Of a DNA stretch of 40,012 nucleotides, positions 26,639 to 29,329 are shown piece after piece. Source of the DNA: Corallococcus sp. CA041A (GTDB taxonomy: Bacteria; Myxococcota; Myxococcia; Myxococcales; Myxococcaceae); NCBI RefSeq assembly GCF_003612075.1, contig NZ_RAWF01000059.1, forward strand, positions 1 to 40,012. Reading direction: 5' to 3'. The notes beneath the pieces are model-generated. The model saw nothing but the letters and a program-made list of their open reading frames with translations, made no database searches and was not told the origin of the DNA. Position numbers and translations under genes: made by a program. Position 1 is the first letter of the stretch, and the number at the start of each line of letters is the position of its first letter.

Positions 26639-26656
26639 AAATGGGCCGTCGATATT

Positions 26657-26675
26657 GAAAATGAGAATCGTTATC
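26657..26675 (+). promoter_or_regulatory. Fur-box-like operator (16/19 match to GATAATGATAATCATTATC) upstream of the lipoprotein/metalloprotease operon
   Basis: GAAAATGAGAATCGTTATC lies in an AT-rich patch about 60 bp upstream of the ATG at 26733. Nothing comparable occurs elsewhere in the window. Confidence 0.4.
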
Positions 26676-26732
26676 GAATAGAGATCGTCCCCATCGAACG
26701 GCGGCGGGTCTCCGCGGCGAAAGGTGACGACG

Positions 26733-27749
26733 ATGAGCAACCCCGAAGGGGCGGTCCGGAAGAGCGGTGCACGGTGGCTCGGCATGGGGGCCCTGGCGGC
26801 CCTCGCGCTGGCCGTGGTGGCGCCGGGATGCAGCAGCGACGAGTGCGTGGATGCGTTCGACTGCCGCGATGAGGGCGCGGCCCCCAAGGGCAAGGCATGG
26901 ACCTGCAACGCGGACAGGAAGTGCGAGCAGCGCACCCTGACTCCGGCCGAAGAGCCTGAGACGGACGCGGGCACGGGCGGTGAGACGGACGCGGGCACCA
27001 CCACTGACGCCGGGACGACCACCGACGCGGGCACCACCACCGACGCGGGCACGGAGACGGACGCGGGCACTCCTCCCGCGGATGGCGGCGCGGAGCTGTG
27101 CCGCAACGCCGTGGCCTGCACGGAGCAGAGCATCGACAAGCTCCGGCTCCGCACGGTCGTCTCCGACGGCGGCGTGATCGAAGAGGGCACGACGGCGGGC
27201 GAGCACCTCACGTACCTGGATGGCCGCGGGGGTGGCACGGCGGTGCCGGACTCGTACACCTACGCGCGCTTCACGGCGACGGGGCTGGAGAAGGTCTACA
27301 TCGATGACCAGTCCTCGCTGGATTCGACCGCGTGGGACGTCGCGGTGCGCCGGTACGTCGTCCGCTTCAACAGCGGCGTGTCCGGCCCGTCGTGCGTGAC
27401 CGTGGCTCAGACGGCGGACGGCACGACGTTCGAGTCGGTGACCTCCGTGCCCACGGATGCGCAGTTCGTGGCGGAGAACTACTACACGCCCGACACCTGC
27501 ACGTTCACCGGGGACTCGTTTGGCCTTCAGAGCCCGGCGACCCAGACCCTCTCGTACTGGGACTACGCTTCCTGCCTGCAGATGACGAACAAGGTCTACC
27601 TGGTCCAGCTGGCGGACGGCCGTCACGTGAAGCTGCAGGTCAAGGACTTCTATGAGCCCGCGATCCAGGAGGAGTGCAACACGACGGGCAAGGTGAGCTC
27701 GACGGCCAGCGCCGGGTCGATCCGCCTGCGGTGGTCCTTCCTGCCGTGA
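26733..27749 (+). CDS. secreted (lipo)protein with Thr/Asp/Ala/Gly (TDAGT) repeats and a Cys-containing C-terminal beta-rich domain
   Basis: ATG at 26733 with an AAGG RBS (the GTG at 26724 is an alternative). It has a signal peptide ending ...LALAVVAPGCSS. A Cys-rich spacer precedes ETDAGTGGETDAGTTTDAGTTTDAGTTTDAGTETDAGT. The stop overlaps the next gene's start (TGATG). Confidence 0.6.
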   Translation: MSNPEGAVRKSGARWLGMGALAALALAVVAPGCSSDECVDAFDCRDEGAAPKGKAWTCNADRKCEQRTLTPAEEPETDAGTGGETDAGTTTDAGTTTDAGTTTDAGTETDAGTPPADGGAELCRNAVACTEQSIDKLRLRTVVSDGGVIEEGTTAGEHLTYLDGRGGGTAVPDSYTYARFTATGLEKVYIDDQSSLDSTAWDVAVRRYVVRFNSGVSGPSCVTVAQTADGTTFESVTSVPTDAQFVAENYYTPDTCTFTGDSFGLQSPATQTLSYWDYASCLQMTNKVYLVQLADGRHVKLQVKDFYEPAIQEECNTTGKVSSTASAGSIRLRWSFLP

Positions 27750-29329
27750 TGACCCCCGGGGTTCCCACGCTGCTCCTGCTGCTGGCCGGCGCGGGAACCC
27801 CGCGCGGCCTCCCGCACGAGCGGGAGGCCGTACAGAAGCGGGTCGCCGAGTCCGGGCGGCCCACCTCGCCTGGCGCGCAGGCGCCGCGCTATGAGCCCGA
27901 GGACACGGTGGAGTCCGTCGTGTCGCCGGGCGGGCGCTTCCGCATCCACTTCACCCGCCAGGGCACGCACGCCGTGCCGCCAGCGGACGCGGATGGCACC
28001 GGCGTGCCCGACTTCGTGGAGCTCGTCGGGCGCACCTACGAACACGTGGCGACGTTCTACGTGGACCTGGGCTTCCGCCTGCCGCCCGACGACACGAATC
28101 CGGCCGGGGACGACGGCGGCGACGGCCGCTTCGACGTGTACCTGGTGGACTTCGCGAGGATTGGCGACGGCGCCTTCCGGCAGGAGACCTGCCTGGAGGG
28201 CGTCACGCGCTGCACGGGCTTCATGCTCCAGGAGAACGACTTCACGGGCTACAACTACCCGTCCGACGCAGAGGCCGTGGAGATCCTGGCCAGCCACGAG
28301 TTCTTCCACGCGGTGCAGGCCGCCTACCGGCCCGACCTGGGCGGCGTCGCCTCCGAGGGCACCGCCGTCTGGGCCACCGAGCGCTTCGAGCCCGCGCTCG
28401 ACGACCTGGAGCACTTCACCCGCGGCTACATGCTGACTCCGGACAGCACGCTGGTGCTGGACCCCGCGGGGCCCGGCGTGACCTTCATCTACGGCGCGGG
28501 GCTCTTCTTCCAGTTCGTGGGCGAGCGCTACGGTGACGGCGCGCTCGTCGCGCTGCTGGAGGAGTCCGTGCGCCAGCCGGAGGCCCGCTGGCCGGTGCTG
28601 CTGGACACCTGTCTGCGCCGCGACTTCGCCTCCAGCTTCGACGCGGCCTTCGCCCAATTCGCCACCTGGAACCTGGGCACCGGCCCGCGCGCGACGCCGG
28701 GGTTCGGCTACGCGCGAGGGGAGGGCTATGCACCGGTGGCGAAGACGGCGGCGGAGCTCCCCACCACGAACGACCGCGTGCGCGTCGCGGCGGCGGCCTC
28801 GCGGATCTTCGAGCTCCCCGGCGGCGCTTCCTTCGTGGGCGCCTCGTTCGAGCCCGAGCCGGGCATCGACCCGGCCACGGTGCACCTGGTCATCGCGGCC
28901 GTCACGGATGACGCCGTGCTGCGGGTGGCGACCGTGGACGGGCCGGACGCCCTGCGCGCCCAGGTGGCCGCGGATGACGCCACGCGCGTGATGGTGGCGG
29001 TCGTGGACGGCCGGATGGAAGGCCTGGGCCGCTATGGCCGGCTGTGCATCGCGGCCACCGGCCAGGCCGCGTCCTGCGCGCCGCTCGAGTCGATGGACGC
29101 GGGCACGGACGCCGGATCCGACTCTGGGACGCCCGATGCCGGCGCGGACGCGGGCACCTCCGATGCGGGGACCGTGGACGCGGGCAGGCCCGTGGATCCC
29201 ATCGATGATCCGCGCACGCCCTCGGATGACGGTGGCTGCCAGGCCGCGGGTGGCCCCCTGTCCGGTGCGCTCGTCGCGCTGCTGCTCGGCGGGGGCCTGC
29301 GGGCCCGGCGGCGTTCACGGGCGCGTTAG
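27749..29329 (+). CDS. secreted HExxH zinc-metallopeptidase-like protein with TDAG-type repeats and a MYXO-CTERM sorting signal
   Basis: Translationally coupled to the upstream gene. It has a signal peptide (MTPGVPTLLLLLAGAG) and HEFFHAVQ. The C-terminus is SDSGTPDAGADAGTSDAGTVDAG...DDGGCQAAGGPLSGALVALLLGGGLRARRRSRAR (GC motif, hydrophobic helix, Arg cluster). Confidence 0.65.
   Translation: MTPGVPTLLLLLAGAGTPRGLPHEREAVQKRVAESGRPTSPGAQAPRYEPEDTVESVVSPGGRFRIHFTRQGTHAVPPADADGTGVPDFVELVGRTYEHVATFYVDLGFRLPPDDTNPAGDDGGDGRFDVYLVDFARIGDGAFRQETCLEGVTRCTGFMLQENDFTGYNYPSDAEAVEILASHEFFHAVQAAYRPDLGGVASEGTAVWATERFEPALDDLEHFTRGYMLTPDSTLVLDPAGPGVTFIYGAGLFFQFVGERYGDGALVALLEESVRQPEARWPVLLDTCLRRDFASSFDAAFAQFATWNLGTGPRATPGFGYARGEGYAPVAKTAAELPTTNDRVRVAAAASRIFELPGGASFVGASFEPEPGIDPATVHLVIAAVTDDAVLRVATVDGPDALRAQVAADDATRVMVAVVDGRMEGLGRYGRLCIAATGQAASCAPLESMDAGTDAGSDSGTPDAGADAGTSDAGTVDAGRPVDPIDDPRTPSDDGGCQAAGGPLSGALVALLLGGGLRARRRSRAR

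Follow-up and report, generated by a model that had tools for sequence, protein, structure and literature searches.

Positions 26639–29329 of a 40,012-nt contig from Corallococcus sp. CA041A (NZ_RAWF01000059.1, forward strand; the whole stretch is referred to here as the window) hold a 94-nt spacer after an MVP homologue, followed by two genes on the same strand. We propose, with a probability of roughly 60%, that these genes form a Fur-repressed operon encoding two surface lipid-anchored proteins, an HmuY-fold binder (gene 1) and an M30-like endopeptidase (gene 2), which would scavenge haem or iron with the help of a receptor encoded elsewhere. As judged by sequence comparison, the pair is orthologous to MXAN_6641–MXAN_6640 of Myxococcus xanthus. 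The central idea is already on record for that locus, and both proteins have names in current NCBI models. The additions made here are incremental: an operator footprint, the phylum-wide coupling of the two genes, a predicted fold for the MXAN_6640 family, and a split between receptor-linked and protease-linked HmuY proteins.

The spacer carries the regulatory part of this proposal. A first-pass annotation of the window had pointed to an AT-rich 19-mer ahead of gene 1 that matches 16 of 19 positions of the Escherichia coli Fur consensus. This element, GAAAATGAGAATCGTTATC, is present at 26657–26675 (+ strand), 18 nt past the MVP stop codon and 58 nt 5′ of the gene-1 ATG, and is conserved upstream of the orthologues. 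It differs from the consensus GATAATGATAATCATTATC at 3 positions and shows dyad symmetry. The box also stands above background: no other match with ≤3 mismatches occurs in the window, and none arose in 100 dinucleotide shuffles. A second match (26651–26669; 5 mismatches, 14/19) overlaps the first with a 6-nt shift, which fits the hexamer-array model of Fur sites (GATAAT-like hexamers). Both lie in an AT-rich operator island, GATATTGAAAATGAGAATCGTTATCGAATA (26651–26680, + strand), that is conserved in an alignment of nine upstream regions and in M. xanthus DK1622. Within the island, 23 nt (positions 26653–26675) are near-invariant across Corallococcus, Myxococcus and Pyxidicoccus. In the alignment of the nine upstream regions this block reads TATTGAA(A/T)ATGA(G/T)AATCGTTATC, with flanks too divergent to align between the two genera compared; columns T64–C86 of the segment spanning window positions 26590–26760 are invariant, and the sequence on either side has diverged.

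Related loci were scanned for Fur boxes in a set of 927 kb, comprising 80 loci that encode gene-2 relatives on contigs taken from one genome per species. A box with 2–3 mismatches lies directly 5′ of the hmuY-like gene in the Corallococcus-type loci L001–L005, which represent four named species and one metagenome-assembled genome (MAG). The Myxococcus/Pyxidicoccus-type loci L006, L007 and L024 carry GAATATGAGAATCGTTATC, with 4 mismatches, and the identical Myxococcus-type box, again at 4 mismatches, is found in M. xanthus DK1622 (L082), ∼105 nt 5′ of the likely start of MXAN_6641. The island is kept upstream of orthologues whose products are only ∼50–60% identical. The other matches with ≤3 mismatches in the set are at position 8644 of L014, before a TonB receptor gene, and at position 5901 of L078, before the protease gene; in ∼970 kb of related loci, each such match precedes an hmuY-like, protease or TonB-receptor gene. 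A further strong match, with 4 mismatches, precedes a TonB-receptor gene in L004 (9631), and weaker ones, with 5 mismatches, do so in L003 (9280) and L010 (2536). For reference, 18 of 1500 random 600-bp windows of the related loci hold a match with ≤4 mismatches, a count that includes windows with real sites. These comparisons indicate that the operator is real and under selection within Myxococcaceae, and that the module does not carry it throughout the phylum.

Indirect experimental support for iron regulation comes from M. xanthus. MXAN_6641 (PF14064 HmuY) was induced by log2 +2.57 and +2.47 at 2 and 6 h with S. meliloti (PMC9548883, Supplementary Table S2A), and MXAN_6640 by +2.38 and +1.64 at the same times (PMC9548883). 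Genes co-induced during predation include the myxochelin genes, TonB receptors and the MXAN_1314–1321 cluster, which has a TonB-dependent receptor (TBDR) and an HmuY family protein (PMC9548883). The same study annotates MXAN_6641 as ‘Putative Fur box… HmuY homologue’, credited to Altmeyer, 2010, a source that used Fur pull-down and an iron-limitation proteome (PMC9548883). FurA (MXAN_3702) is the established iron repressor of M. xanthus, and in a deletion mutant the myxochelin genes are derepressed irrespective of iron (PMC11388931). In a full-text search of the available literature library, neither MXAN_6640 nor MXAN_6641 was mentioned in a main text; the sole mention was in supplementary tables. 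Through the M. xanthus induction, the putative Fur box and FurA, the earlier suggestion of an iron-regulated surface protease or haemophore-like pair gains in plausibility, albeit indirectly.

Gene 1 (26733–27749, + strand; 338 aa, with an alternative GTG start at 26724) encodes an HmuY-family lipoprotein. Its translation begins with a signal peptide and lipobox (…LAVVAPG-C33-SSD; 26733–26831, Cys codon at 26829–26831), and ≥90% of 57 homologues retain C33. Residues 36–70 (26838–26942) make up a 4-Cys mini-module, modeled with a predicted local confidence (pLDDT) of 69–88, that is missing from most homologues. This module is Corallococcus-specific and also heads Corallococcus TolB/PD40-type proteins (P0187–P0205). 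It is followed by a disordered linker of (E/T)TDAGT repeats (residues ∼75–117, 26955–27083; pLDDT <50), the length of which varies in orthologues; Tandem Repeats Finder placed a repeat of period 18 and 4.6 copies at 26988–27070.

The remainder of the protein, residues 118–338 (27084–27746), is an HmuY-fold domain of a Cys-rich subfamily, as seen from homologue alignment, AlphaFold, Foldseek and profile search. The first-pass annotation had likened gene 1 to HmuY-type lipoproteins on the basis of size, and the likeness proved to go well beyond size. Pfam HmuY (PF14064) matches residues 196–317 at 53.7 bits (gathering cutoff 27; E = 3.4e-14), and NCBI names the 94%-identical protein P0121 ‘HmuY family protein’. 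The AlphaFold (AF2) model has pLDDT >90 over residues 120–338, and all 12 significant Foldseek matches in the PDB are HmuY-family proteins at probability 1.00 (BfrB, HmuY, BF2707, BVU_2192, BfrC, Tfo and PinO). A profile built from the 57 homologues matches PDB entries 8b6a, 8b61, 3h8t, 3u22 and 6eu8. The domain carries a WDxAxRRYxxRxNSG signature, six conserved Cys residues, and near-invariant W276, Y278 and M284.

Gene 2 (27749–29329, + strand; 526 aa) encodes a zinc metalloprotease of the MXAN_6640 family. Its product is 99% identical to P0001 from Corallococcus exiguus and matches NCBIfam NF045524 (‘MXAN_6640 family putative metalloprotease’) with 242.3 bits against a cutoff of 140, the match covering residues 66–355 and profile positions 1–288 of 290. 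The zinc site HEFFHAVQ, noted at the first pass, spans 28295–28318. Its zinc-binding and catalytic motif HEFFH (H183, E184 and H187; 28295–28309) is invariant in 74/74 aligned homologues, and HE[F/Y/L]FH is present in all 80 loci. Also invariant is E203, in ‘SEGTA’ (28355–28357), which sits on the helix after HExxH in the predicted model and is the presumed third zinc ligand. The predicted catalytic domain (residues ∼37–335, 27857–28753) has a confident and complete gluzincin fold (clan MA(E)), thermolysin-like, with HExxH and a downstream Glu on the next helix, and is closest to the M30 protease lugdulysin.

We considered whether gene 2 belongs to MEROPS M30 by sequence and rejected the assignment. 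There is no Pfam match for gene 2, nor for any of the 74 homologues at E ≤ 1; a sequence and profile search of the PDB returned no relative, only spurious HalB matches at E∼0.4; and identity to 7bb8 is 12%. The likeness is one of fold. A reading in which the gene-2 product resembles a protease at the cell surface but has no catalytic activity (a pseudo-enzyme or adhesin), the pair having a structural role, strikes us as very improbable. NCBIfam does grade the MXAN_6640 family as only ‘putative’, and inactivated MYXO-CTERM metalloprotease families exist (NF041938, to which the tail here has a weak match). Yet HExxH and E203 are invariant in 74–80 homologues, and this invariance, with the completeness of the predicted fold, argues for constraint on catalysis.

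The catalytic domain is followed by a β-sandwich (residues 339–436, 28763–29056) that resembles PPC and collagen-binding domains, and then by a disordered DAG-repeat linker (residues ∼445–495, 29081–29233; pLDDT <50 at 457–503), in which Tandem Repeats Finder found a repeat of period 15 and 2.9 copies (29143–29186). TDAG repeats do occur in both proteins, and the first-pass idea of a flexible stalk agrees with the low pLDDT. The companion idea, that the repeats signal a common origin, was discarded: such linkers are generic, disordered and variable, and occur also in TolB/PD40-like proteins (P0187–P0213) and in the GH114 protein of PDB 9ep5.

The protein ends in a MYXO-CTERM sorting signal (29234–29326; G496, C497, a hydrophobic helix and RARRRSRAR), as had been proposed. 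The last 44 residues score 20.0 bits with TIGR03901, exactly at its cutoff of 20, and 20.2 bits with TIGR03382 (cutoff 15.85). The tail, GGC497QAAGGPLSGALVALLLGGGLRARRRSRAR, is tripartite, with a Cys motif, a helix (505–524 in the model) and an Arg-rich end. G496 and C497 are conserved in at least 90% of the 74 homologues and invariant in a 16-sequence alignment, and ≥60 of 74 complete homologues have a Cys-hydrophobic-Arg tail. The MYXO-CTERM route entails lipidation, cleavage by MrtX and export through the type II secretion system (PMC11980579). No gene for this myxosortase lies in the window; MrtX is reported to be universal in Myxococcota (PMC11980579).

The N terminus of the protease varies within the family. 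The MXAN_6640-family consensus has an N-terminal lipobox (LLxGCG) besides MYXO-CTERM, which would imply either two lipid anchors or a cleaved pro-segment. The lipobox Cys, carried by most family members, has been lost in Corallococcus (AGAG; window positions 27749–27800) and in some Archangium sequences. Protease variants of ∼1,000 residues in L049, L055 and L067 have another C terminus (…RIVRIK) and no MYXO-CTERM tail.

By their layout, gene 1 and gene 2 make up a translationally coupled two-gene operon, as the first-pass annotation had it. A Shine–Dalgarno-like AGGTG (26722–26726, + strand) lies 6 nt 5′ of the gene-1 ATG and is kept in the Corallococcus upstream alignment. At the junction, ccGTGATGacc, the gene-1 stop and gene-2 start overlap (GTGA/TGATG, 27746–27749, + strand): the TGA occupies 27747–27749, and gene 2 can start with ATG from 27749 or GTG from 27746. 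This coupling is shared by orthologous loci, an NTGA-type overlap of the start with the hmuY stop being present in 39 of 71 same-strand orthologous loci. G+C content at third codon positions is 0.91 for gene 1 and 0.91 for gene 2.

The association between the two genes extends across the phylum. With tblastn, an hmuY-like gene was found in 75 of the 80 loci encoding gene-2 relatives, and in ∼67 of these 75 it lies on the same strand, ≤400 nt 5′ of the protease gene. The pair spans Myxococcia, Polyangia (Sorangium, Polyangium and Sandaracinaceae) and Nannocystis. Given this broad same-strand adjacency and the stop/start overlaps, hmuY and the protease gene are an old, co-translated unit. Among the 80 loci, no gene other than these two is universally linked to the pair. 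Recurrent neighbors are an opposite-strand protease paralogue, TonB receptors with a short HmuY, DUF6607 genes, HtrA-like proteases and a Ser/Thr kinase; the partner genes c2 (838 aa), c5, c12, c13 and c30 have no Pfam or NCBIfam match. In Archangium minus (L009, 1528–7227), a same-strand run consists of DUF6607, TBDR, short HmuY, long HmuY and protease genes, with gaps of 7–16 nt between the first four. Cystobacter fuscus (L010, 2600–7395) repeats this run starting at the TBDR, with the weak Fur-like box at 2536 ahead of it. As gene context goes, this Archangiaceae arrangement is the strongest link of the pair to TonB-dependent uptake. TBDR genes are linked to the module in L009, L010, L014, L041 and L054.

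Other arrangements were also seen in the set. A second MXAN_6640-type paralogue lies beside the pair on the opposite strand in many Polyangia and MAG loci (L014, L019, L023, L042, L046, L050, L054, L060, L061, L068, L070 and others), and two tandem protease genes with a divergent hmuY occur in L072, L073, L076 and L080. The MAG contigs L065, L070, L073, L076, L079 and L080 are labeled Enterobacteriaceae, Enterobacterales or Pseudomonadota and have 69–74% GC and MYXO-CTERM-like tails. These labels are probably wrong and the contigs Myxococcota, in which case they are not evidence for the pair outside the phylum. Near the module, Fur-like boxes with 4 mismatches were found beside other genes with a candidate role in metal handling, at 9691 of L069 next to a cupredoxin and imelysin (Peptidase_M75) pair and at 8474 of L008 next to a DUF6607 gene.

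Several observations weigh against the proposed reading, on the side of regulation as well as on that of the ligand. The strong Fur box is restricted to Myxococcaceae. Archangiaceae, Sandaracinaceae and some MAGs have only degenerate boxes, with 6–7 mismatches, 5′ of hmuY (an example from Hyalangium is GCGATTGAGAATCGTTCTC), and in Sorangium and Polyangiaceae the best upstream matches, with 8–10 mismatches, are background. The M. xanthus induction was measured in prey co-culture, not under defined iron limitation. A sigma-70 consensus scan called no promoter at the operator. A terminator scan gave two terminator-like matches, both at the level of shuffles, and revealed no intrinsic terminator separating MVP from the box; read-through from MVP into the operon is therefore possible.

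These regulatory points bear on an account to which we assign a small chance, namely that the AT-rich island serves as a core promoter (a −35 TTGAAA and its spacer) or binds some other regulator, for instance a Zur- or PerR-type Fur paralogue, the Fur resemblance being incidental or reflecting a different metal. By eye, TTGAAA-17 nt-ATAGAG can be made out in the window and TTGAAT-18 nt-TATGGT in Myxococcus, and such elements could explain part of the conservation. Another regulator would fit the lack of the box from most non-Myxococcaceae loci and the fact that gene 2 encodes a zinc enzyme. But a dyad-symmetric match at 16–17 of 19 positions, with a further match shifted by 6 nt, exceeds what a −35 element explains. 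Similar boxes stand before the TonB-receptor genes of L003, L004, L010 and L014, and the M. xanthus study lists the putative MXAN_6641 Fur box with reference to Fur pull-down and iron-limitation work (PMC9548883). With the elements made out by eye, the Fur box would lie over the −35 element and spacer, and would probably overlap the promoter.

On the side of the ligand, the 57-member alignment of gene 1 contains no invariant His, nor a pair of His or Met residues that is invariant. The loops of Porphyromonas gingivalis HmuY that hold His134 and His166 (3h8t chain residues 88–148) fall outside the aligned part of the profile. Short HmuY paralogues linked to TonB receptors (L003, L009, L010 and L014) are without the Cys residues and share a conserved His. 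Those linked to the protease are Cys-rich, do not have that His and make up a subfamily of their own. The closest solved relatives of the gene-1 domain are BfrB and BfrC: the former binds haem with no coordination of its iron, and the latter does not bind haem or protoporphyrin IX (PMC12106395). Modes described for HmuY proteins include His-His, His-Met and Met-Met ligation, ring-only binding and no binding at all (PMC12106395), so the fold alone is insufficient to establish haem binding. Moreover, the 40-kb window holds no TBDR, haem oxygenase or haem ABC transporter gene, neither hmuR nor hmuSTUV, and no iron or haem genes among the neighbors of the operon.

The same points feed a reading that keeps the regulation and surface display but in which the HmuY-like protein is not a haem carrier. 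It would instead be a recognition, docking or regulatory partner of the protease, and the pair would serve general extracellular proteolysis (predation or nutrition) or the uptake of another ligand. We regard this as unlikely overall, though it deserves real weight: besides the missing His and Met pair and the behavior of BfrB (the best structural match) and BfrC, the tightest and oldest linkage of this HmuY is to the protease, not to a receptor. Set against it are the Myxococcaceae Fur box, Fur-box-preceded TonB receptors beside the module in several lineages, and the operon that the pair shares with a TBDR and short HmuY in L009 and L010. The M. xanthus orthologues are also co-induced with iron-uptake genes, and near-invariant M284 and Y278 could ligate haem. 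On balance, we continue to favor haem or iron scavenging.

Comparison with known systems helps to place the operon. In M. xanthus DK1622, MXAN_6641–6640 are ∼50–60% identical to the window pair, with the same order, an overlapping junction and the box core ATATTGAATATGAGAATCGTTATC. The neighbors differ, an alkylresorcinol cluster and ABC transporter there and MVP and nadC in the window. Relative to M. xanthus, Corallococcus gene 1 has the extra 4-Cys module and a longer DAGT linker, and the Corallococcus protease is without the N-terminal lipobox Cys. The Hmu system of P. gingivalis pairs the haemophore-like lipoprotein HmuY with the TonB-dependent receptor HmuR, and gingipains release the haem. 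Shared features are an HmuY-fold lipoprotein, iron-responsive control (predicted here) and a role alongside surface proteases; the Archangiaceae module of L009 and L010, beside a TBDR and a second HmuY, resembles hmuY–hmuR. In contrast, the partner of the window hmuY is an M30-like zinc protease rather than a receptor, His134 and His166 are unrecognizable in gene 1, the domain is rich in disulfides and has an extra helix at its N terminus, and the organism of the window is not known as a haem auxotroph.

The best sequence and fold match of the gene-1 domain is Bacteroides fragilis BfrB/HmuY(Bf-2) (PDB 8b6a; profile E = 1.5e-16; Foldseek E = 1e-9, TMt 0.72; identity ∼22%). BfrB holds haem by the ring, with the iron uncoordinated (PMC12106395). 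For gene 2, the predicted fold resembles lugdulysin and hyicolysin (7bb8), secreted neutral metalloproteases of staphylococci in family M30, at an identity of only 12%; gene 2 adds the PPC-like β-sandwich, the disordered linker and the MYXO-CTERM anchor. The tail, with its Cys motif, transmembrane helix and Arg cluster, is that of MYXO-CTERM/myxosortase clients such as TraA, differing from them in that the cargo is a protease.

The MVP neighbor of the operon is incidental. The MVP homologue directly upstream (24359–26638, + strand), placed there at the first pass, was recognized by Pfam (Vault repeats and MVP_shoulder). A functional link to MVP was rejected: the adjacency is limited to three Corallococcus-type loci (L001, L002 and L005) and is not shared by other Corallococcus, by Myxococcus or by any of the remaining loci. 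Neighbors in the window include genes for valyl-tRNA synthetase (ValRS), NadC, MVP, a hypothetical lipoprotein, a LysM/VgrG3-like protein, a biopterin hydroxylase-like protein and a LysR regulator. An Rfam scan found no RNA family in or near the operon.

Elsewhere in the window, the only match of the Rfam scan is a selenocysteine tRNA at 6075–6169 (− strand; RF01852, 70.5 bits, gathering score 47), from which it follows that this genome supports selenoprotein synthesis. The valyl-tRNA synthetase gene (19289–22783, + strand) encodes a Lys/Ala-rich C-terminal tail of ∼120 residues like histone H1 (KKAPAKKA repeats; Pfam HC2 at 37 bits, just under its gathering score), and upstream of valS a 77% GC stretch (18001–19000) encodes Pro/Gly/Ala-rich repeats. 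Between nadC and MVP, a small open reading frame (23741–24061, − strand) with no Pfam match has a signal-peptide-like MKASRLKQTIPGFALIIGIMAGTALA and a Cys-rich C terminus CSRTCKPCSTQMECGTSGGSCGVWRC; it may encode a secreted Cys-rich peptide. The gene at 30449–32167 (+ strand) encodes a LysM domain, then a C-terminal domain like that of the type VI secretion protein VgrG3 (peptidoglycan-hydrolase type), and a long Thr/Lys/Pro-rich region.

From these data we infer the following mechanism. When iron is sufficient, Fe2+-Fur would bind the operator at 26651–26680 and repress the operon; when it is scarce, for example in competition with prey, the operon would be derepressed. The gene-1 product would be exported, lipidated at Cys33 and its HmuY-fold domain shown on a flexible DAGT stalk. 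The gene-2 product would be an active M30-like gluzincin endopeptidase with a β-sandwich binding domain. It would break down (haemo)proteins, extracellular or from prey, and the freed haem or porphyrin would be captured by the HmuY-like lipoprotein. The ligand would then pass to a TonB-dependent receptor encoded elsewhere in the genome or, in Archangiaceae, in the same operon. A broader version, which we offer tentatively and consider possible rather than probable, is an ancient, translationally coupled haem-piracy module of predators throughout Myxococcota, in which the surface protease would strip haem from prey haemoproteins and a His-less, disulfide-rich HmuY would hold it by Met/Tyr or ring-only ligation, with a His-bearing HmuY and a TonB receptor acting after it, in line with the Archangiaceae operon.

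Known mechanisms of iron competition in myxobacterial predation center on the siderophore myxochelin. If the proposed reading is correct, a Fur-controlled surface module of protease and HmuY-type carrier would add another route, in which haem or iron is taken directly from prey proteins. Such competition strongly shapes the outcome of myxobacterial predation (PMC11388931). The MXAN_6640 family gains a fold assignment, at the level of prediction, and a testable functional context. To our knowledge, experiments on the HmuY family have been almost confined to Bacteroidota, and a Cys-rich HmuY subfamily tied to a protease across a phylum would widen its known ligand chemistry and partners.

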